A stretch of 20,000 nucleotides of DNA from an uncultured virus (IMG/VR IMGVR_UViG_3300010344_001075) (IMGVR_UViG_3300010344_001075), one strand, 5' to 3'; shown: positions 3,672 through 15,090, counted from the first letter of the stretch. The notes: a model not told the origin generated them from the sequence alone. Numbers and translations: made by a program.

Positions 3672-4209
3672 TCTTCATATGGTTTAATAAGGTTTCTTTT
3701 AACTTGGATACAGGAAGTAATGTACCATCCAGGTATTCCGGTGCAACATACATGCGGTTTACTTTCTTGTCTTTGTGTCGATAAGATGTGTGCCAATATT
3801 TTGTGGGGATATCTCCGTACTTGAAAAATACAAACCAACCAGTTCGTACGAATAAAAGAACACATACCCCCTCTCCTCCTAATTTTTCTAAGGCATACTT
3901 GACACGATCCTTTTCAGCCGTGGCTTTAACGATTGATGAGGGCATATCATAACGAACATGCCCTTGTATCTGTTTAACGTAATCAACAACAGACATTTGA
4001 CATTTAACAGGAACCGCCGTATATTCTTTTGAGGTGATCCATTGTGTATTACCAACTATTTGGCTTTCTTTCGTTGGAACTTCCTTTACAGGAGTCAATA
4101 CGAAACCAGCCTCTTCCAATATTGGACGTAGGAATAACTCAATATCTTGTAGGTTTTTATCCCCACCAAAGACATGTTCTTTTTCAGGTAACGGAAATAA
4201 CGTATCCAT
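3652..4209 (-). CDS. Hypothetical protein
   Basis: 185-aa ORF whose start is coupled to the dpdA stop (TAATG overlap at 4209). No motif recognised with confidence. Confidence 0.7.
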   Translation of the reverse strand: MDTLFPLPEKEHVFGGDKNLQDIELFLRPILEEAGFVLTPVKEVPTKESQIVGNTQWITSKEYTAVPVKCQMSVVDYVKQIQGHVRYDMPSSIVKATAEKDRVKYALEKLGGEGVCVLLFVRTGWFVFFKYGDIPTKYWHTSYRHKDKKVNRMYVAPEYLDGTLLPVSKLKETLLNHMKNENSKG

Positions 4210-5246
4210 TATTTTCTGTATTTTGCTACCGCTTTGGCAATGTTCTCACTCCAATAAGCGTAGCTGATTAAGATATCAAGTTTGGGCCGTACCTTGCCAA
4301 AGATTGCCAAGTGTGTCGTTGTTGAAACACCCATGTACATGATGGTCTTTGGACCTTGTATCATCTCTTCCTTCTTGATCAAATTTTCTACGTACGGACG
4401 TGGATACACAGGTGTCCTTCTTTGAAGACGTGTCCACATCGTTAAGTTCCACCTCATGCGTTCTTCCCAGTGATTGGCAAGTGTACGAACTTCGGTGTTA
4501 GAAGGTTTGATTATATAACCAAACTCGGGTTTCAGTTCCTTCTTCGGATTCTTCTTGTCTTTACGTGTCGGGCGTTGTTCCTGATAACGAAGTTCTCCTA
4601 ATTCAAACCCACCATCTACTATCAAACCTTCGTATGCCTTTTGAGCACTCGGTGGCAGGCCAAGAAAACTTGTCTCATTACCAACGACATGTTTAGCCTG
4701 ATCCGATACACGGCAGATAAACATATCAAAGTATTTAAATTCGTTATCCCGTATTATTGGCAACAGGATACTGCCCCATACGGCGGATATGACAGGAGTA
4801 AAGGAGTCAACTGAGAACCAGGGATACTTGAGCATCTGATCAATCTGTGTTAAACCAAGCCCATGTATCTTAACTTTGGGCATGCCATCTTTATCAAGGA
4901 AGAACTTCTTCCATATAACATCAAGGCCTTTTAACCGTTGTTCTGTATCCAAGTTAGCTACGGCACCGATGGCAATGTGATCAGTCTCGTCCAGGTACTT
5001 TTTCAAGTACTCTTCCTCTCCGGTTACCATGTGGTAAACAGGAATGGTGTGGGCTCCTAAGGATTTCAAGTACTTCCAATTCTCATAACTTTTCTTTGTG
5101 TCGTTGATATGGTCAAGGTTAATACAACCGTCAAACTCATGACCATGCTCAATAACGAATTGGGCATACTTATCAATGTCAATGGTGATACCTTGTCTGT
5201 ATGCGGTGTAGGCACCGGAATCAATTAATACTCTTGGCGTTTTCAT
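4209..5246 (-). CDS. dpdA: DpdA-like DNA 7-deazaguanine transglycosylase (TGT superfamily)
   Basis: TGT-barrel motifs VLIDSGAYTA, NLDHI, IPVYH, IAIGAV, KIHGLGLT and YPWFSVDS. Co-located with folE/queD/queE/queC. Confidence 0.85.
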   Translation of the reverse strand: MKTPRVLIDSGAYTAYRQGITIDIDKYAQFVIEHGHEFDGCINLDHINDTKKSYENWKYLKSLGAHTIPVYHMVTGEEEYLKKYLDETDHIAIGAVANLDTEQRLKGLDVIWKKFFLDKDGMPKVKIHGLGLTQIDQMLKYPWFSVDSFTPVISAVWGSILLPIIRDNEFKYFDMFICRVSDQAKHVVGNETSFLGLPPSAQKAYEGLIVDGGFELGELRYQEQRPTRKDKKNPKKELKPEFGYIIKPSNTEVRTLANHWEERMRWNLTMWTRLQRRTPVYPRPYVENLIKKEEMIQGPKTIMYMGVSTTTHLAIFGKVRPKLDILISYAYWSENIAKAVAKYRK

Positions 5247-6211
5247 TCATATAGCATTATGTGAGAAACATCTTCATAGAACTGTTCAGCCTGACCTTCT
5301 GTCAATAACCGTGGTGTAGAAACCTTGTCAGCAAGTACTCCTTCAATGATTTTTACACATTCATCAATTGAGTCATATAAGTACTCATTTGGGAGTAACT
5401 CCGGGTAACTGAACGCTCTTGGTGCCACCGGTACGCATCCGTTGCGTACGGCATCTACAATTTGGTAACCGTAGGTTTCCTCTTTGGCGGTTATCAATAA
5501 AACTTTGGATTCTGCCAAGTATTGGTAATAGGCGGCCCAAGAAGCCATCACAAATGGTGTTTCAACTTTTAAACCCAATCGTCGGCACACTTCTTTTTCA
5601 AACTTCATATTTCTTTTCTGTAAACCTGGACGAGATACATTTATCAAAGTCCTGGTTTTCATTGGAAACAATAGCATTGGCAGTTCCGAAGAGAACGGTG
5701 GGTTTGGAAATGGCACGACAGCCGTATTCCCCCAACCGAGTTTTAAACGGTGGTAATGGGATGCTACGAATACAGTATCAAACAAGGCTGCTTGCCGTGT
5801 TTCAATCGGCCACTTCAATCCGCGTTCGTGTAAGAAATAATCATACCGGTTTTTGCTTGTGGCATGACAAATGGCAAAGCACTTCTTTGGTCGTTTGTGG
5901 AATAAGGCATTGGCAAACAAACCAGGATAACTTAAATCACAAAGCAAAAGGACGTCATCCGGTTTCAATACAAGATCAGCATATTGCATAATCTGCCGTG
6001 CTTCAAACTCCATAGCATTTTCCATAGGAGCAAATACACTACCGGGCATTCCGCTGGATTCAGGTAAGGAACTGAAAACAGAAGGATCAGTTACTCCAAG
6101 AGTCACTACCTTATCAAAGTATTTGGAGAACTGTTCTGGGAAGACTTTTGCCCACCATTGCTGATAACGCATCGGGGTGGGGTATTGTGGTACAAGAATT
6201 AGTCGGCTCAT
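5243..6211 (-). CDS. GT-B fold glycosyltransferase (GT4 / Glycos_transf_1-like)
   Basis: C-terminal signature AKEETYGYQIVDAVRNGCVPVAPRAFSYPELL (ExFG..vEA..G.Pv pattern), plus FDTVFVASHYH. ATGA overlap with dpdA. Confidence 0.85.
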   Translation of the reverse strand: MSRLILVPQYPTPMRYQQWWAKVFPEQFSKYFDKVVTLGVTDPSVFSSLPESSGMPGSVFAPMENAMEFEARQIMQYADLVLKPDDVLLLCDLSYPGLFANALFHKRPKKCFAICHATSKNRYDYFLHERGLKWPIETRQAALFDTVFVASHYHRLKLGWGNTAVVPFPNPPFSSELPMLLFPMKTRTLINVSRPGLQKRNMKFEKEVCRRLGLKVETPFVMASWAAYYQYLAESKVLLITAKEETYGYQIVDAVRNGCVPVAPRAFSYPELLPNEYLYDSIDECVKIIEGVLADKVSTPRLLTEGQAEQFYEDVSHIMLYE

Positions 6212-6212
6212 A

Positions 6213-6668
6213 TTAGATTTTTATTATCCATTGTGTGTAACCTTCAAACAAGAAGTACTTATGGTCGTACTGCCACAGACTTTTCTTACTGGTGTAACAG
6301 TATTCTAAGTCGCGGCGTTTGAGTTCAGGGGTTTCAACCTCATGTAGGTATGGTACGTTCATATTTGTTGTGTAGAAAATCACTTTGTACCCGTCACGTA
6401 ACATAATCACACCTACATTTCCAAGGTGTCGGTGTAGGGGGTGTATTTCATTCGTGGGGTCCGGGAAGAGGTATGTCAGCCTGTTTAACATTGGAAGACT
6501 GTCTATTGACCGTACACTGAAACCAAAACACTCACTTGAGTTTACGGCCTCTTCCATTGCCTTTTCAGAACCGAAGTACACATCTGTCACCTGCCCTGTT
6601 TTCAATAGCTCGTAACAACCAATGATTTCGTCATCAGCATGTGGGGCTATAATTACATGGTCTCTCAT
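6213..6668 (-). CDS. PIG-L/LmbE family Zn-dependent N-deacetylase (minimal)
   Basis: VIIAPHADDEIIGC (PHxDDE motif) and a downstream HPLH (cf. HxDH). 151 aa. Confidence 0.85.
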   Translation of the reverse strand: MRDHVIIAPHADDEIIGCYELLKTGQVTDVYFGSEKAMEEAVNSSECFGFSVRSIDSLPMLNRLTYLFPDPTNEIHPLHRHLGNVGVIMLRDGYKVIFYTTNMNVPYLHEVETPELKRRDLEYCYTSKKSLWQYDHKYFLFEGYTQWIIKI

Positions 6669-7039
6669 ACCCCGGTGCTCATTTGGAGTAAACCGTAGAA
6701 CTCAATACGACAGGCGGTGTGATTCATAAAGTCTCCGTGAAGAGAAGATATAAAGCACTTGTCAACATAGAACACTACGGCGACACCTTCTGATTTCTCA
6801 AAGGTGTCATTGAGGTGTTCCGTCAACGCTCCTGCCATGTTACGCAATTTCTGGATATCGTTTACCCAGCCATCAGTTTTGTTTGCCTTCATAAAGGCTA
6901 CAACCACATTGTCAAGTGTGGTGAGATCATCATCGGTAATCATACCGACGTAAATAGGGAAACCCCAATGCGTGTACTTCCGTATGAGCAGGGGGCTGGC
7001 ATGTTTGTCTACCAGTTTTGTAAAGGTGTCATTCTCCAT
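6665..7039 (-). CDS. Degenerate GTP cyclohydrolase I (FolE)-like T-fold protein, no catalytic Zn ligands
   Basis: The C-terminus EGVAVV...SSLHGDF...CRIEFYGLL parallels the FolE in this window (EGAACI...SSLTGSF...ARAELLQLI). It lacks CEHH and HMC. ATG at 7039 is preferred over GTG at 7045. Confidence 0.5.
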   Translation of the reverse strand: MENDTFTKLVDKHASPLLIRKYTHWGFPIYVGMITDDDLTTLDNVVVAFMKANKTDGWVNDIQKLRNMAGALTEHLNDTFEKSEGVAVVFYVDKCFISSLHGDFMNHTACRIEFYGLLQMSTGV

Positions 7040-7568
7040 AACCACTAAATATTTCGTCTTTGTTAATTTGATAAGCTTCTGCTAATTTCTCTATGGTTTC
7101 TTTTTGCATACCAAGAAGAGGGGCTTCAAGTTTGATTGGCCTACTGCCGTTTATTTGTAAGAGTTTATTCATTTGGTAAACCCACTCCTGTGAACAATCT
7201 GGGAATATGTTTTCACGATCGGCATAATTGGCTCCGTACCAGATTAAATCAATGCCTTGACTCTCTGCCAATGAAGCCGCGTATGCCGTGAATAACATAT
7301 TTCGGGCGGGCACGTGCCACTGAGATACACCCTCATACCGTTTATTCTGCCCTGTCAAGGTGGAAGAACTGAGTGTAGGTATTGTAACATACACAAATTT
7401 GACAGCCCGTTTAGAACATTGATCCATGGCAAACTCTGTCTCTTTTTCATGACGTTGTCCGTAATTGAAAATAAGACAGGTTATCTCATAACCCAAGTCA
7501 AGTGCCAGGCACAATAAAACAGTACTGTCTAATCCACCACTATAGAGTAGAAGAAGTTTCTTTTTCAT
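7029..7568 (-). CDS. queC: 7-cyano-7-deazaguanine synthase QueC, lacking C-terminal Zn-binding segment
   Basis: PP-loop YSGGLDST, FNYGQRH, VPARNMLF, FPDC and APL...K. It ends at FSGYGE* where canonical QueC continues SCY...CGxCxxC. The likely start is ATG 7568, preceded by GAAAGGAAACAAC. Confidence 0.9.
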   Translation of the reverse strand: MKKKLLLLYSGGLDSTVLLCLALDLGYEITCLIFNYGQRHEKETEFAMDQCSKRAVKFVYVTIPTLSSSTLTGQNKRYEGVSQWHVPARNMLFTAYAASLAESQGIDLIWYGANYADRENIFPDCSQEWVYQMNKLLQINGSRPIKLEAPLLGMQKETIEKLAEAYQINKDEIFSGYGE

Positions 7569-7812
7569 GTTGTTTCCTTTCTCTGATTTCAAGTAATAAT
7601 CTATCAATTTCAAGATGTCGTATGCGGCCGAATCTAAAAGCCGATCCAGTCAAATAGTTAAGGACTCTCCGAACCCTGAGTGGATCGGAGAAGTCCTGTA
7701 AATATGTTCTCAATATTTGGCAGTTGGCTGCGGGTGTATGCTTCCACGTACCAAGGAACGAGCGACGTATTATCTGCCACTCAGGATCGTTTACAATTTC
7801 TTGTATTTTCAT
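7540..7812 (-). CDS. Small basic hypothetical protein (90 aa)
   Basis: MKIQEIVNDPEWQIIRRSFLGTWK...RVLNYLTGSAFRFGRIRH. Start at 7812 forms an ATGA overlap with the methyltransferase stop. Confidence 0.75.
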   Translation of the reverse strand: MKIQEIVNDPEWQIIRRSFLGTWKHTPAANCQILRTYLQDFSDPLRVRRVLNYLTGSAFRFGRIRHLEIDRLLLEIRERKQHEKETSSTL

Positions 7813-8309
7813 CTTCGTATGGCCTCGAACTGTATTTCGATTTTGGAGGGACGCGATACTTGAACAACTTCGAACAGATCTTCTCTGTCTAAGTACCATA
7901 CACCCACTTCATCAAACCAAATGGAACGGTGTAATGTTTCATCAGGTGTGCTAAAGAGTTTGAGACAGGTGATGTCCAATGTTGAGAAGTCCCCGTGGCT
8001 TGTCCTGTCAGCCAATTCATCCAACAGTTTGATAAAGTCCGGTGTGATAATTATCAACCGACCACCCGGTTTTAAGACACTCCATATTTTGAATAAGAGT
8101 GTGGTTATCTCCGCATGAGTAAGGTGCTCAAACAAGTGTTCAGCCCGTACCTCATCCACCGATTCTGCGGCAAATAAGGAAGGCAGTTCCTGTACATCAG
8201 CCTCAATGAAATTATGCCCTTTATATTCTTCTTCCGGCAATACCATAAGGTCAATGTTGATGTAGTCAGGCAACAGTTTATTGCCACAACCAAGATTCAG
8301 TTTTTTCAT
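7809..8309 (-). CDS. Class I SAM-dependent methyltransferase (Methyltransf_11-like)
   Basis: Motif I KLNLGCG, YINID, ADVQELP...ESVDEV, HLFEHL and VLKPGGRLIIITPD. Confidence 0.88.
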   Translation of the reverse strand: MKKLNLGCGNKLLPDYINIDLMVLPEEEYKGHNFIEADVQELPSLFAAESVDEVRAEHLFEHLTHAEITTLLFKIWSVLKPGGRLIIITPDFIKLLDELADRTSHGDFSTLDITCLKLFSTPDETLHRSIWFDEVGVWYLDREDLFEVVQVSRPSKIEIQFEAIRR

Positions 8310-9334
8310 TCTACTCTTCGTTTAGACCATTTTGATTTATCAATGTGTTCTCCGGCATGCGAGGTAAACACCTTCTCCCCCATGGCAGGATCTTTTTCTT
8401 TCCAATAGTGATGTATAAAAGGACAGACCCAAATACAACCAGGGCAGTCCATCGCATCAAGACGAACAGCCTCCTTCCATTCCTCTGTCTTTTCAGGCAA
8501 ATCAAAAATGGTAAATTTTGGTGTTCTTGTGCCCTTACGGTAACCACAGACTCGTAGAGTACCATCGGCATCAATTGTAGGACCATCATAGGGGTTACCC
8601 TGACAATGCCAACCCATCCCTATCAATTTGGGATTGTCAACGATTGCCTGTAGGTATTCAGGGTTGTATATTAGTAAATTTGATTCCTCAAGAAGAGACT
8701 TGAAAACAGAAGTCACAACGATATAATCTTGTTCTTTAAACAAGTAATCTTTCATGTCTTCCTCCGGTGGAAAGAAATCATACTGATGATCTTTACTCCA
8801 ATGGATAAGATTAATGCCAGCGAAAATGCCTAACTTTGACAGCTGCTGTACAATCAAACCAATGTAGGCAATGTTCCTGCGGTGTACCGTAATTGTACCT
8901 TGCATGTCAACTTCCGGGTGTAACTTTTTCACTCGGTAGAAGGCGTCCCAGGCATCCGCCGCTTTTTCAATTGAGGCATCCCGTACCTGACTCCTGGCTC
9001 CCATAGGATAATCAACACCACAAGATAAGTTGTCAATAACTTTATCTCCAAGTAGAATCTGCTCATTCTTACTAAACAGTTTCTTTGGTGCAGTGGTGTA
9101 CATGGCATATGGCACTTTGTTTGCCTTGAATATAGGAACCAACTTTTCACCCAAGAGCCAAGGTTCGTTTCCTAAGATAAGGTTGAAAGTTACACCGATA
9201 TCTTTCAATATATCAAATGCCTCAATCCACTGTTCCTCTGTCAATTCCGGTCCGGTATCCTTTCCTTCACGAATAGAACAATAGGCACAGTCTCTTGGAC
9301 ATCTTCGCGTCATATACGTTACGGCAAGTTTCAT
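8306..9334 (-). CDS. Radical SAM protein with C-terminal SPASM/twitch-like auxiliary cluster region
   Basis: [11 protein letters not shown] (CX3CX2C), LGNEPWL, and C-terminal HCQGN...[11 protein letters not shown]...CPGCIWVC. Confidence 0.9.
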
Positions 9335-9888
9335 GGTAAAGCAATCAGTTGTAACAATTCTGCTCTAGCTGTGGCATCATCCAAGAAGCTGCCCGTCAAT
9401 GACGAAGTTGTCATAGTTGACTGCTGTTTGTTTACTCCACGCATCCTCATACACATATGAGTGGCCTCAATGATACAGGCAGCACCCTCTGGTTGTAGAT
9501 ATTCCATTAACGCCTCAGTAACTTGTTGACCGATACGTTCCTGAATTTGTAATCTACGGGCAAAGACATCAACAAGTCGAGCCAACTTGGACAAGCCTAT
9601 TACCTTCTTTCCTGGTATATAGGCAACATGAGCTTTTCCAAAAAATGGAAGCATGTGGTGTTCACACATAGAATAGAGCTCAATGTTCTTACAAATGACA
9701 ATTTGACTGTACCCATTCGTGTCTACGAAGGTTGTGAACAATGATGCCACGTCCTGTTTGTAACCGGCATACAGTTCACTCCAAGACCTTACAACACGTT
9801 TGGGGGTGTCGTATAATCCCTCTCGCGAAGGATCCTCCCCCAAACGGTGTAAGATTTCTTTGAGCAGGTCTTCACTACTCAATCCCAT
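9331..9888 (-). CDS. folE: GTP cyclohydrolase I
   Basis: [45 protein letters not shown] and HMCMRMRGV. The likely start is ATG 9888. Confidence 0.97.
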
Positions 9889-10534
9889 TCTCGGTAAGTT
9901 TGAGGTTACCAAGCCAGTTCGGATCACGCTTGATCCTGTACTTGATGTGGTTGTTTACCAGTCCCTGGTTGGCAGACATCTTCAGCCCACGGGCTTTGAT
10001 TTCCTTTTCAAGCTTGGGCAGGATCTCATCCCAGGCACCTCCGGCAAGTATCACCTCATCGGTGAAAGCGGCGAAAGAGCCTTCATGCTTGAACTTCGGT
10101 TTTGCATCGCCTGCGACCTTGACGTTGTTTTTCTTGGCAGGGGGTGCCGGTGGGGCTTTCTTGGCAGGTGCTTTCTTGGCAGGTAGAGCTTCCTCTTCAG
10201 GATCTTCCTCCTCTTCAGGATCTTCCTCCTCTTCAGGATCTTCCTCCTCCTCTTCCTCTTCAGGTTCTTCTTTCTCCTTCACAGGAGCCGGTTTCTTTTT
10301 ACCAGTTGCCTTGGGCTTGTCTTTGTATTCTTCGATGATTTCAAGAGTTTCCTCAGTGAACTCATCATCAGGGGTAATGAGACCTGGTTCGTTAACGGTA
10401 TCTTTGATGATAGCTTCCAGCTCGGGAGCCTTCATCTTATTCGTGATGACAATGTCATCCTTGTTCTCGTCAACAAGACCAAGTGTTTCAACCAGTTCTT
10501 TCGCCGCTGATCTCAGCTCTTCAATTTTACGCAT
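9875..10534 (-). CDS. Hypothetical protein with acidic and Lys/Pro/Ala-rich low-complexity linker
   Basis: 219 aa with a central (EEEEDP)x3 and PAKKA repeats between two apparently folded ends. It has its own upstream promoter-like motif. Confidence 0.8.
10191..10244. repeat. Coding tandem repeat, 3 x 18 bp (tcctcttcaggatcttcc)
   Basis: Three perfect adjacent copies at 10191, 10209 and 10227. A nearby 15-bp repeat gctttcttggcaggt occurs twice at 10155-10184. Confidence 0.95.
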
Positions 10535-10608: not shown

Positions 10609-11375
10609 TCAAATACCTATTTTCTTATCCCACAAGACAATGTGTTCACGTGTACGGAACAGTACACCTTCCCGGATTGCTAATTGAACAACCATTTCTG
10701 TATTTGCATCTACTTCAGTCTTGGTTGCCCCTTCAGGCATAAGAATAACTTGAGACCGATCAATGTATCGTGTTTTTAAAAACATTGAATCAATCTCATA
10801 CCAATCCTCAGGTTTGGTAATAACAAACTTGAACCAAGAATTACGGTAACTGGCAGCGTCTACAATGACTAAAGGATTATATCGCTTCTGGTACGGATTC
10901 CCGCTGCTATCAAGTTTTGGCGAATTATTCCAACAATCAATGTACTGAGACATAACGCTGGTCGGGAATAAACTACACTCATTTTCAATTTCTGTGTAGG
11001 GTTTGAAGTGAAAACGCTTTTGAAACTGATACAAAAATTCTACCAAATGATCTTGTTGCAGTAATGGACTACCTCCGGTAAGGACAGATGTTGTCCATTT
11101 TTTAGACTTGGTATGATTAGACTATCCGCCATCATTGAAAATAGTTCATCAAACGTGTACGGATTACCTTGTTTCCAAACTTCAGTGGTGTCACACCATA
11201 CGCAATCCAATGAGCAACCTTGTAGGCGTAAGAAAGCCGAAGGGTGTCCAAGGTTTATCCCTTCTCCTTGTATGGAGTCATAAAAGAACTCAGAAACACG
11301 AAGGTAATTTTCATGCTCTGGCCTTTTTCGCTTTTCAATAGGAAAAGCCCGTATCAATTGTTTTGCTTCAATCAT
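10609..11375 (-). pseudogene. queE: 7-carboxy-7-deazaguanine synthase QueE interrupted by a single frameshift (real mutation, recoding or sequencing error)
   Basis: The 5' part has SIQGEG, FLRLQGCSLDCVWCDT. At about 11086 the -1 frame continues VLTGGSPLLQQDHLVEFLY...NSPKL...FKFVI...LMPEG...REHIVLW. Adding one base gives a protein of about 255 aa. Confidence 0.9.
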
Positions 11376-11725
11376 GGTTCGTACCGGGCTGAGGTTTTTG
11401 GTGTCTCACTTACTTCCACTGCACATACTTCGGGATGCATTGCATGAAAAATATTGAACAGATCCCAAGCCATGTTTTCAGCGGTGGGATTGTACTGTAA
11501 GAAATCATTGAGATGTTGATGATCAAACACGTCATCAATAAACTTTTTGATGTCGTCCAATTCCCGGTAATCAACGATAAAACCTGTGTCGTTAAGTTCT
11601 TCCGCACAAAGCTCCACAGTCACCACATAATTGTGGCCGTGTACCCTGCTGCACGGGTGAGTCTCAGGCCGGCAATTAAGTTGGTGGCTTGCTGAGAAAT
11701 GAAATTCTTTTCTAATTTTGTACAT
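11372..11725 (-). CDS. queD: 6-carboxy-5,6,7,8-tetrahydropterin synthase QueD
   Basis: FSASHQL, CSRVHGHNY, GFIVDY, FDHQHLND, PTAENMA and VEVSETP. Confidence 0.96.
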   Translation of the reverse strand: MYKIRKEFHFSASHQLNCRPETHPCSRVHGHNYVVTVELCAEELNDTGFIVDYRELDDIKKFIDDVFDHQHLNDFLQYNPTAENMAWDLFNIFHAMHPEVCAVEVSETPKTSARYEP

Positions 11726-14431: not shown

Positions 14432-14596
14432 TCACGCAACTTTCATAATTCGGTAGTCTACCCACATAGTTCTTCCATATTTCATGTGTAAAAAGCGAAT
14501 TATATCAGTGTCAGTGAATGACATAGGAACCAATTCTTTCTTGAGTTTACCCTGAGGCATCGTGACGTACACCGTCTTCTTTCTGATGGAATTCAT
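14432..14596 (-). CDS. Small hypothetical protein (54 aa)
   Basis: Below the track cutoff. Manual translation gives MNSIRKKTVYVTMPQGKLKKELVPMSFTDTDIIRFLHMKYGRTMWVDYRIMKVA*, with an ATGA overlap with the upstream gene. Confidence 0.6.
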   Translation of the reverse strand: MNSIRKKTVYVTMPQGKLKKELVPMSFTDTDIIRFLHMKYGRTMWVDYRIMKVA

Positions 14597-15090
14597 AGGG
14601 CATCTGCAGTTCTCATAAACACTTCATTTTCGGGCAGTGGGCAGTTCTCTATCCACTCGATATCTTCCTTGATTTTCCATTTGTGTTTCAAGGGGAATAT
14701 CGAGATACCTTTAAAGATGTTTAGTCGCAGCGAAAGGCTCTCATCAAAGTCTGCCTCTCTTTCGGACTCAACAAAGTGACGGGCGTCGTATCTGTCATGT
14801 ATCGTAACTGTGAGCCCGTCAAGCATCCAGTCAAGACAATAGAACAAAACAGTTGCCAAGTCTGTCGTGTACAGTATTATTTTGGCAAACGTGTTTTCTT
14901 TTCGTATCGCACGAATTAGACGTTGTACACGCAGCGGTTCTGTCATAGGTTCTCCACCTGTTATCATGATTTCATCGTACCCTGCGTAACTGGTACAGAC
15001 AGGTAGTTTAGATAGGTCCCATTGATTGTTGCAACAACCGGAACAATTTTTGTTGCAGTTTTTCGTAATCAATAATCTTAGCTTTTTCAT
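14593..15090 (-). CDS. Short radical SAM protein
   Basis: ITKNCNKNCSGC (CX3CX2C), IMITGGEP, ILYT and DGLTVTIH. Only 165 aa. Confidence 0.85.
   Translation of the reverse strand: MKKLRLLITKNCNKNCSGCCNNQWDLSKLPVCTSYAGYDEIMITGGEPMTEPLRVQRLIRAIRKENTFAKIILYTTDLATVLFYCLDWMLDGLTVTIHDRYDARHFVESEREADFDESLSLRLNIFKGISIFPLKHKWKIKEDIEWIENCPLPENEVFMRTADAL

Follow-up and report, generated by a model that had tools for sequence, protein, structure and literature searches.

A glycosyltransferase and a minimal PIG-L-like hydrolase as a predicted tailoring pair in a phage 7-deazaguanine DNA-modification operon

What would a glycosyltransferase (GT) and a PIG-L-like hydrolase do directly upstream of a gene for a DNA guanine transglycosylase? 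The question is raised by a stretch of 20,000 nucleotides (nt) from an uncultured virus (IMG/VR IMGVR_UViG_3300010344_001075); "the window" below means this whole stretch. We propose that the two proteins, whose activity is predicted, are working enzymes of a phage-specific tailoring module within a 7-deazaguanine DNA-modification operon. With a somewhat better than even chance, they would put an N-acetylhexosamine (HexNAc) on a 7-deazaguanine intermediate and then de-N-acetylate it, so that a base with an amino sugar would end up in DNA. Three genes stand at the centre of the question:

5243..6211, minus strand: GT-B, GT4-like GT of 322 amino acids (aa), assigned by family profile, motifs and AlphaFold model; predicted HexNAc transferase
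6213..6668, minus strand: minimal PIG-L/LmbE-like hydrolase of 151 aa, assigned by motifs and profile; predicted de-N-acetylase
4209..5246, minus strand: DpdA-like DNA guanine transglycosylase of 345 aa with a basic C-terminal extension; phrog_887

All long open reading frames (ORFs) of the window lie on the minus strand, its GC content is 39–49%, and matches to Pfam and PHROGs identify the region as one of phage replication and nucleotide metabolism. The closest record is a 27.5-kb IMG/VR fragment that has 85% of the sampled words in common with the window, and a blastn search with positions 4000-9500 against 50,697 phage records gave no match. An earlier note on this DNA had described the PIG-L-like, GT-B and dpdA genes as consecutive, with a 1-nt gap followed by an ATGA overlap, and direct reading of the DNA gives exactly this arrangement. 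The PIG-L-like ORF (6668..6213, minus strand, 151 aa) ends with TAA, and one base further on follows the ATG of the GT ORF (6211..5243, minus strand, 322 aa), the stop codon of which shares an ATGA with the start of ORF 5246..4209 (345 aa). The tight packing continues upstream, where the stop codon of a methyltransferase gene and the ATG of an ORF of about 90 aa overlap in the ATGA at 7812-7809, a QueC-like gene follows and overlaps a 126-aa ORF by 11 nt, and the latter is joined to the PIG-L-like ORF by another ATGA. The pair of GT and PIG-L-like genes is part of a seven-gene co-translated train with dpdA last.

Both enzymes are divergent members of their families. The single sequences of the GT and of the PIG-L-like protein had no match in Pfam, PHROGs or NCBIfam at the limits used, and the best match of the single GT sequence in the PDB was BshA, with an E value of only about 1. 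The GT has 256 homologues at E ≤ 1e-3, which are unnamed metagenomic proteins. At E ≤ 1, PF00534 matched 34 of the 42 relatives aligned (best E 9.4e-8), and the family profile found the GT1-family domains 5i45 (E 0.002) and 2f9f (E 0.008) in the PDB. The AlphaFold model of the GT (pLDDT 90.8, pTM 0.90) consists of two Rossmann-like domains with an interdomain cleft, which is the GT-B fold. In Foldseek, BshA of Staphylococcus aureus ranked first (6d9t, E 3.6e-9), followed by SenB and then by BshA structures of Bacillus subtilis and B. anthracis, and MshA stood at rank 36. Comparison with VIA aligned 289 of the 322 residues with B. anthracis BshA (3mbo) at Z 22.6 and a root-mean-square deviation of 3.1 Å. 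A Z score of at least 8 was reached by 766 of 998 re-aligned chains, and the top 50 matches listed were all GT-B enzymes; the full-length matches at Z 19–22.6 were BshA, SenB, MshA and other retaining GT4 enzymes. No DNA glucosyltransferase of the T4 type was among the top 50 matches listed in the structure searches with the GT model. None of 42 GT family members matched the N-terminal Pfam family of the GTDC1/QTMAN type at E ≤ 1; we take this N-terminal domain of GTDC1 to be DUF3524.

GT4 enzymes carry the donor-binding motif EX7E in the C-terminal domain. In the phage family, the counterpart of its first Glu in BshA and other GT1-family domains is E244, which is invariant. Family-specific invariant residues in the N-terminal domain are R15, Y16, W19, H105, C115, H116, S119, N121 and D124. 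Judged by its model, the GT is a GT4-type GT-B enzyme, and the structure is silent on the acceptor. The family assignment of the earlier note is thus upheld by profiles, motifs and the fold model.

The PIG-L-like protein (N-terminal start: ...IIAPHADDEIIGC) has 246 homologues at E ≤ 1e-3, again unnamed metagenomic proteins, and 41 of 43 relatives matched PF02585 at E ≤ 1 (best 6.9e-7). It carries the N-terminal motif A8-P9-H10-A11-D12-D13-E14, in which A8, P9, H10, D12 and D13 are invariant in 43 sequences, and a second motif E.HP.H, in which E74, H76 and H79 are invariant in the same number. In motifs of the (A/V)HPDDE type, the His and one Asp are metal ligands and the other Asp is the catalytic base, as known from MshB. 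The family profile found the archaeal diacetylchitobiose deacetylases 8bgn and 8bgo (E 3.5e-4), with both motifs aligned, namely APHADDE with the PHPDD motif of the deacetylase and H76/H79 with the HPDH of 8bgn. About 66 residues separate the two motifs here, versus about 118 in 8bgn, and the protein would therefore be a minimal version of the PIG-L domain. Of 30 feature matches in the ESM Atlas, 28 were in the PF02585 set, and the single sequence had a weak PDB match to another member of the superfamily, 4-oxalmesaconate hydratase (5cgz, E 1.4). The earlier note had pointed out the unusually small size of 151 aa and an HPLH in place of the usual HxDH; both features were found again, the latter as HPLHRH at residues 76-81. 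Motifs, the PF02585 matches of relatives and the deacetylase match of the profile all speak for the PIG-L family, as far as sequences can tell. The analogy with MshA/MshB and BshA/BshB, likewise drawn before, also holds: BshA is the best structural match of the GT, MshA is among the matches listed, and the metal- and base-providing residues of the PIG-L-like protein are kept.

How firmly are the two genes tied to each other? A scan of IMG/VR with the GT alignment yielded 73 loci, and 3 further loci brought the total to 76 (numbered with the prefix L below). Their genes were counted by tblastn with the window proteins, and the counts are lower bounds set by the lengths of the flanks. Relatives of the PIG-L-like protein were found in 71 loci, of a T-fold protein (the 126-aa ORF, see below) in 59, of the QueC-like protein in 51, of a DpdA of the window type in 36, of FolE in 34, of the radical S-adenosylmethionine (SAM) enzyme in 33 and of QueE in 29. 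When loci with GTs at least 90% identical were collapsed, 54 non-redundant loci remained. The PIG-L gene lies upstream of the GT gene on the same strand in 50 of these 54, and in 50 of the 50 that have upstream sequence; in the remaining four (L042, L055, L061 and L073) the GT occupies the very start of the locus, with nothing upstream to see. The neighbourhood of GT and PIG-L genes is no chance neighbourhood. A reverse scan with the PIG-L alignment yielded 74 loci, many of them on contigs already in the GT scan, and the GT was present in 59 of the 61 loci with a strong match to the PIG-L family (E ≤ 1.8e-24). It was missing in L098, where the sequence ends just after the PIG-L gene, and in L114 (9451-11318), where no GT relative occurs within 8 kb and cytidylyltransferase-like and GDP-mannose/sugar 4,6-dehydratase/epimerase-family genes lie downstream of the PIG-L gene. 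The other 13 loci, with a weak N-terminal match or no match to the profile, were without the GT and also without deazaguanine genes. Across bacteria and archaea (genomes of 185,579 species), relatives of the GT were confined to 4 contigs, all from metagenome-assembled genomes. The GT family is essentially viral.

The pair occurs with two different sets of replication genes. Twenty-three non-redundant loci have the architecture of the window (the PolA lineage), with the gene order QueD-QueE-acidic protein-FolE-(short-chain dehydrogenase/reductase, SDR)-radical SAM-(methyltransferase)-QueC-T-fold-PIG-L-GT-DpdA-processivity factor-uracil-DNA glycosylase (UDG)/exonuclease-PolA. About 26 other loci belong to large phages in which PolB is fused to an N-terminal UDG domain. 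Here, QueC is followed at some distance by T-fold (in part with a nucleoside-2-deoxyribosyltransferase-like (Ndt-like) gene before it) and, again at some distance, by PIG-L, small ORFs, GT and a 174-aa basic protein, and further on by PolB-UDG, QueE, S21 and Cpn10. A 474-aa protein resembling tRNA-guanine transglycosylase (TGT) is encoded about 9 kb downstream in this lineage (phrog_887, 1.6e-6, a weak match). The genes after QueE in many loci of the PolB lineage, for example L031, L038, L060 and L070, are those of ribosomal protein S21 (PF01165) and the co-chaperonin Cpn10 (PF00166). The 174-aa basic protein was considered as a member of the module and set aside, having no family match; the position of its gene presumably resembles that of the small clamp-loader subunit gene of T4-like phages. 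The tie between the pair and 7-deazaguanine genes therefore extends over many phage lineages with two unrelated replication backbones, PolA and PolB-UDG.

It also extends to cultured phages. The Xanthomonas phages X1 and BUDD encode a PIG-L relative (tblastn E 1e-11; profile 1.3e-22) and a GT relative (8e-28), and the pair sits between FolE plus a PP-loop ATPase (PF01507) on one side and a TGT-like gene, then QueE, on the other. In X1, the gene of the PP-loop ATPase (L003:8493-9026) adjoins the PIG-L gene, and the protein matches PAPS_reduct (PF01507) at 1e-13 but not QueC (PF06508) at E ≤ 0.01. Lineages thus differ in the adenylating enzyme next to the pair. A more distant GT (profile E 5e-15) is encoded by the Acidovorax phage ACP17, in a deazaguanine cluster beside a DpdA-type gene; it is the best viral structural match to the GT of the window, with E 1.2e-14 versus 3e-9 for the first generic viral GT.

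The base on which such a pair could act is indicated by the genes around it. In the window, one locus holds FolE, QueD, QueE (frameshifted here), the QueC-like gene and the DpdA-like gene, which is the gene set of a 7-deazaguanine system:

11372..11725, minus strand: QueD, 6-carboxytetrahydropterin (CPH4) synthase; PF01242 E 3.5e-31, and TIGR03367 with 92.6 bits, over its cut-off
10609..11375, minus strand: QueE, 7-carboxy-7-deazaguanine (CDG) synthase, here as two ORFs; phrog_2076 matches on both pieces
9331..9927, minus strand: FolE, GTP cyclohydrolase I; PF01227 E 2.1e-73
7029..7613, minus strand: zinc-less QueC-like PP-loop ATPase, 179 aa from the likely ATG at 7568; PF06508 E 1.2e-37
6665..7045, minus strand: T-fold protein by its model, 126 aa when read from the likely ATG at 7039; predicted to bind purine/pterin and to partner the QueC-like enzyme

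The two pieces of QueE are overlapping ORFs of 111 and 145 aa. In five close relatives (L004, L005, L007, L008 and L009) QueE is intact as a single ORF of 255 aa, and the window differs from these by a single 1-base gap at 95.5–97.4% identity over the stretch. The split is either a frameshift or an assembly error.

The DpdA-like protein matches phrog_887, "queuine tRNA-ribosyltransferase", at E 1.4e-38, and had no Pfam match at E ≤ 0.01. In tblastn, 225 phage records, many of them annotated as queuine tRNA-ribosyltransferase, match residues of about 5-220 at about 30% identity, and none of these records covers the last 125 or so residues. Neither the single sequence nor a 23-sequence profile matched a solved structure at E ≤ 1. 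The isoelectric point (pI) of the protein is 9.0 overall and 10.1 for residues 221-345. The median pI of the DpdA family is 9.2, and the medians of the other families are 7.0 (GT), 5.9 (PIG-L), 5.4 (QueC) and 5.75 (T-fold).

The QueC-like protein is remarkable for what its C-terminus lacks. According to the available part of Libby et al. (PMC13329287), the QueC signature comprises SGGxDS, YxQxHxxE, VPxRN and YPDC together with the zinc motif C(x)8CxxCxxC. All catalytic motifs are kept in the protein of the window (SGGLDS, YGQRHEKE, VPARN and FPDC), which ends with ...FSGYGE just where C(x)8CxxCxxC would start and has no Cys cluster. It scored 126.7 bits against TIGR00364, under the cut-off of 150.3. 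The same truncation is found in 29 of 32 non-redundant loci; Cys-bearing C-termini occur in L039 and L056 with the full CxxCxxC and in L040 with a partial motif. Because the catalytic motifs are kept, the enzyme should still adenylate the C7 carboxyl group.

Its neighbour, the 126-aa protein, had no match in Pfam or PHROGs, and the family profile found nothing in the PDB at E ≤ 10. Pfam scans of the individual relatives gave scattered noise only, and ESM Atlas scores stayed below 0.9. The model of the protein (pLDDT 87.8) has the topology beta-beta-alpha-alpha-beta-beta, and DSSP places the elements at E19-24, E31-37, H44-55, H64-81, E85-94 and E97-104. In a VIA comparison with 48,161 chains, the top 14 matches were all T-fold enzymes (Z 11.2–8.0), namely GTP cyclohydrolase I (Z 11.2 and 10.2), dihydroneopterin aldolases (8.9–8.0), QueF (8.8) and a QueF-like enzyme (8.3). 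The model thus contains the core of the T-fold. When the T-fold family was aligned with the phages' own FolE in hhalign, a C-terminal match of 28 columns was obtained (probability 14.8%, E 0.0018), which is a hint, though no proof, of descent from FolE.

In an exhaustive profile search of 1.84 billion representatives, the T-fold protein had only 107 relatives. Among the 27 longest, 2 are fusions with a QueC N-terminal part, 3 are fusions with an Ndt-like domain, and 22 have no recognised extra domain. The QueC part of the fusions ends with ...FSGY(G/T), and the T-fold domain follows. Because of these fusions, the zinc-less QueC and the T-fold protein probably act together on the deazaguanine nucleus, and the two proteins, both missed by the earlier note, point to special chemistry at C7. 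The Ndt-like/T-fold fusions occur at L066:5836-6663 and L069:5924-6745 and in the proteins P0270, P0274 and P0281, and in many loci of the PolB lineage a separate Ndt-like gene stands immediately before the T-fold gene. The Ndt-like association is a hint that the base is handled as a nucleoside or nucleotide.

We hypothesized the following route. FolE, QueD and QueE would produce CDG, as in the established pathway, and the zinc-less QueC together with the T-fold protein would activate or transform its C7 carboxyl group. The BshA/MshA-like GT would add HexNAc to the deazaguanine intermediate, the donor most likely being UDP-N-acetylglucosamine (UDP-GlcNAc) of the host. The PIG-L-like metal hydrolase would take off the acetyl group and expose a cationic amine, and DpdA would swap guanine in DNA for the base. 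Transfer of HexNAc followed by de-N-acetylation is proposed because the obligate pairing of a GT with a PIG-L protein is the signature of this reaction sequence in BshA/BshB, MshA/MshB and PIG-A/PIG-L. Paromamine synthesis by aminoglycoside enzymes shows the same pairing.

As to the timing of the sugar steps, the free base or a small precursor is only slightly more probable as their substrate than DNA after insertion. We lean towards the free base because the families of GT, PIG-L, QueC and T-fold are neutral or acidic and DpdA is basic, and also because the nearest solved GTs use small acceptors and huimycin offers a precedent. In the accessible part of a preprint on huimycin (bioRxiv 10.64898/2026.04.15.718813), the PF13439 GT HuiG transfers GlcNAc from UDP-GlcNAc onto a free 7-deazapurine, its substrate being preQ0. 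As to the site of attachment, the C7 side chain is a possible one that we rate short of even and prefer because the module is tied to a remodelled enzyme of the C7 carboxyl group. A ring nitrogen, by analogy with huimycin, is rather less probable, and a route resembling MshC, in which the QueC-like enzyme would ligate the unmasked sugar amine to the C7 carboxyl, is distinctly unlikely. To our knowledge, all natural decorations of deazaguanine project into the major groove; the pockets of the TGT family read the N1/N2/O6 face. The complete picture, in which guanine is replaced by a 7-deazaguanine with a free-amine hexosamine, built by the BshA/BshB-like pair and a zinc-less QueC/T-fold enzyme that prepares or links the C7 group, is put forward tentatively, at somewhat less than even odds.

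Several observations weigh against this proposal. The scores of both enzymes in the defining Pfam families are below the gathering cut-offs, with 12.2 bits (E 0.13) versus 26.4 for the GT in PF00534 and 13.5 bits versus 28.2 for the PIG-L-like protein in PF02585. The second Glu of EX7E is replaced by an invariant Asp (D253) in the GT, and the middle Asp of HxDH is Leu in the hydrolase and variable across its family, so that activity or specificity may differ from that of the textbook enzymes. Sucrose-phosphate synthase, a tetrahydrobiopterin glucosyltransferase, SenB, PimA and TarM are nearly tied in Z, within about 2–3 units, and several GT4 enzymes come within 1 unit of BshA; as GT4 enzymes with unrelated acceptors score alike, the first rank of BshA says little about the acceptor. 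Intermediates of 7-deazaguanine have no hydroxyl group, and an N-, amide- or carboxyl-linked sugar must therefore be assumed. The donor, the acceptor and the product are all ones that we infer, and pI is weak evidence on the substrate. The QueE copy of the window, as assembled, may be defective and unable to make the base. Finally, ACP17 has no PIG-L gene within 9 kb of its GT and no QueC, and the GT clade thus does not always need a deacetylase or a C7 carboxyl derivative. Clusters of the ACP17 type (GT, no QueC, no PIG-L) mean that attachment at a ring nitrogen and action after insertion stay serious alternatives.

The latter is also the core of the best rival explanation, rather unlikely in itself. 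According to it, DpdA inserts a simple 7-deazaguanine, the GT works on the DNA thereafter, and the PIG-L protein deacetylates the sugar on the polymer. The alpha- and beta-glucosyltransferases of T4 likewise act on a base already in DNA, hydroxymethylcytosine (hmC). The GT gene abuts dpdA with the ATGA overlap, related GTs stand beside a different DpdA type in X1 and ACP17, and the pair is found together with three or more DpdA types, which is easier to understand if the base pocket of DpdA need not fit a sugar. There is also a precedent at the level of tRNA, as, in the part of the report available, QTMAN/GTDC1 glycosylates queuosine, a 7-deazaguanine derivative already in the tRNA (PMC11755703). 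However, the families of GT and PIG-L, unlike the strongly basic DpdA, are neutral or acidic, the structural neighbours among the matches listed act on small molecules or glycans and include no DNA glucosyltransferase, and in the PolB lineage the GT is about 9 kb away from the TGT-like gene.

A second rival explanation, which we regard as quite improbable, is that the pair, perhaps with the radical SAM enzyme and the SDR, works on another target, a protein or a host glycan, or produces a separate small molecule, and has only an early-gene operon in common with the deazaguanine genes. Pairs of GT4 and LmbE enzymes do make thiols and aminoglycosides, PolA-lineage loci have radical SAM and SDR genes together with the pair, and in phages of the PolB lineage the genes lie dispersed between those for replication. 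On the other hand, the QueC-like gene is found in at least 51, QueE in at least 29 and the T-fold gene in at least 59 of the 76 loci, some genomes have QueC and the T-fold partner in one fused protein, the X1 pair lies between FolE and the TGT-like gene, and the 13 loci with a weak or no profile match are without both GT and deazaguanine genes. The alternative raised in the earlier note, that the PIG-L-like protein is an amidase on a deazaguanine amide and hydrolyses, for example, ADG to CDG, fits poorly and is the least probable of all: the PIG-L/LmbE superfamily does include amidases and a hydratase (compare the weak match to 5cgz), the Asp of HxDH is not conserved and the protein is unusually short, but the reaction would leave the GT partner, obligate in 50 of 50 loci, without a reason and would undo the QueC-type step encoded two genes upstream, and the best profile matches are sugar deacetylases.

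Beside the genes of the proposed route, the operon has further genes:

8306..9334, minus strand: radical SAM enzyme of 342 aa with a Cys-rich C-terminus; PF04055 E 2.9e-8, and a weak PqqE match (1.2e-6)
7809..8309, minus strand: SAM-dependent methyltransferase of 166 aa, accessory; PF08241 E 1.6e-7, tblastn matches in 10 of 76 loci
7540..7812, minus strand: small, basic and conserved ORF that has about 90 aa when read from the ATG at 7812; tblastn matches in 16 of 76 loci

The radical SAM gene is present in 21 of the 23 non-redundant loci of the PolA lineage, frequently beside an SDR gene, and its product is regarded as accessory to the module of this lineage. The small basic ORF had no family match in the Pfam and PHROGs scans; its relatives include loci of the PolB lineage, and a longer reading of 119 aa has a pI of 11.2. 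The sugar-nucleotide enzymes in L114, and radical SAM, SDR and methyltransferase genes in many loci of the PolA lineage, suggest further tailoring that varies between phages. A 165-aa 4Fe-4S/radical-SAM-like protein (PF13353, phrog_31524) is encoded at 14593-15090 on the minus strand and adjoins the primase gene. A homologue is inserted between the T-fold gene and the PIG-L gene in L015/L072, L018 and L019, and the PF13353 protein may belong to the tailoring module in some phages.

The replication genes of the window, as identified with Pfam and PHROGs, encode an SNF2 helicase, a sigma factor, a primase, a DnaB-like helicase, a processivity factor (phrog_947) and DNA polymerase A. The polymerase is in pieces, all on the minus strand: an ORF with UDG and 3'-5' exonuclease at 1426-2643, a 116-aa ORF at 1073-1423 that is seen in the closest relatives only, and a polymerase ORF at 3-1112 that runs off the window. 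The UDG/exonuclease and polymerase parts are separate ORFs in all relatives of the PolA lineage. A family of UDG-fused PolA has recently been described for phages with T-modified genomes, as far as the available part of that report goes (PMC13697223).

What would follow if the proposal were true? The sugars on DNA in the literature consulted are all on pyrimidines (glucosyl- and arabinosyl-hmC, glycosylated 5-hydroxycytosine and glycosylated thymidines). The product would be the first glycosylated purine known in DNA and a new chemical class of DNA base. A cationic, bulky base in the major groove would block many restriction and glycosylase defences. Restriction enzymes, CRISPR nucleases and antiviral glycosylases would meet in it a new target or obstacle, and failures in sequencing and cloning of these phages would be a likely result. 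The base-specific GT, the minimal deacetylase and the zinc-less QueC/T-fold pair would be new enzymes for the making of modified nucleic acids. As the pair is present in two cultured Xanthomonas phages, the hypothesis can be tested directly.

Searches of openly accessible full texts turned up no account of a GT or PIG-L protein within a cluster for deazaguanine modification of DNA, and term look-ups in a 2023 paper in Nucleic Acids Research (NAR), a 2026 paper on the QueC family and a 2021 survey of jumbo phages had the same outcome. The main text of the 2023 paper (PMC10516641) does not contain "glycosyl", "PIG-L", "LmbE" or "deacetylase".

How, then, does the module compare with known systems? 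Its two central proteins resemble BshA/BshB and MshA/MshB in that the same two superfamilies stand side by side, with the logic of a GT4 GlcNAc transferase followed by a de-N-acetylase. The resemblance may extend to a third, ATP-using enzyme, as the QueC-like PP-loop protein is encoded two genes upstream and MshC and BshC are the following enzymes in the mycothiol and bacillithiol pathways. In contrast to BshA and MshA, the phage GT has an identity of only 12–15% to these enzymes and an acceptor that by context is neither malate nor inositol phosphate. The phage deacetylase has about half the usual length and lacks the Asp of HxDH, and unlike the thiol pairs, the phage pair is viral and lies inside a DNA-modification operon.

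The phage systems described by Cui, Hutinet et al. (NAR 2023, PMC10516641) consist of FolE-QueD-QueE-QueC and DpdA1-4, with the tailoring enzymes DpdL, DpdM and DpdN. The module shares with them the core pathway genes, a DpdA and the principle that extra enzymes decorate the base. The available text of that paper gives eight 7-deazaguanine DNA bases, which carry small groups only and no sugar. A further difference is that QueC is without the zinc motif here and paired with a T-fold protein; DpdL also has a T-fold, but it is described there as a paralogue of QueD.

Huimycin biosynthesis likewise combines a GT4-type enzyme with FolE, QueD, QueE and QueC, and a PF08241 methyltransferase (HuiC there) also occurs in the window. 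Unlike the product of the phage module, huimycin is a free secondary metabolite of actinomycetes, and huimycin-type clusters are, according to the authors, without machinery for incorporation into nucleic acids; the words "phage" and "deacetylase" do not occur in the accessible part of the preprint. The same part describes RoyL-type homologues of QueC that make amides from CDG, as in roseomycin A, and QatC and Cap9 ligate CDG to protein amines, which is termed protein deazaguanylation in the available part of PMC13329287. The phage QueC shares the scaffold with these enzymes, which, in the portions of both sources at hand, activate CDG by adenylation and link it with an amine that is not ammonia. 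Like the phage QueC, Cap9 is a shortened QueC with the catalytic core, but it keeps CxxCxxC, of which the phage protein has none. The partners of the phage QueC differ from those of QatC, Cap9 and RoyL, as they are a T-fold protein, a GT and a deacetylase, and a role of the phage QueC as an amide ligase may be considered, by analogy, as one sub-hypothesis only.

Finally, in putting a sugar onto a modified nucleic-acid base the module would resemble QTMAN/QTGAL and the T4 glucosyltransferases, whereas the acceptors of all these enzymes carry hydroxyl groups and none of their products is then deacetylated. Taken together, we regard the module as a new tailoring branch of the phage 7-deazaguanine systems.

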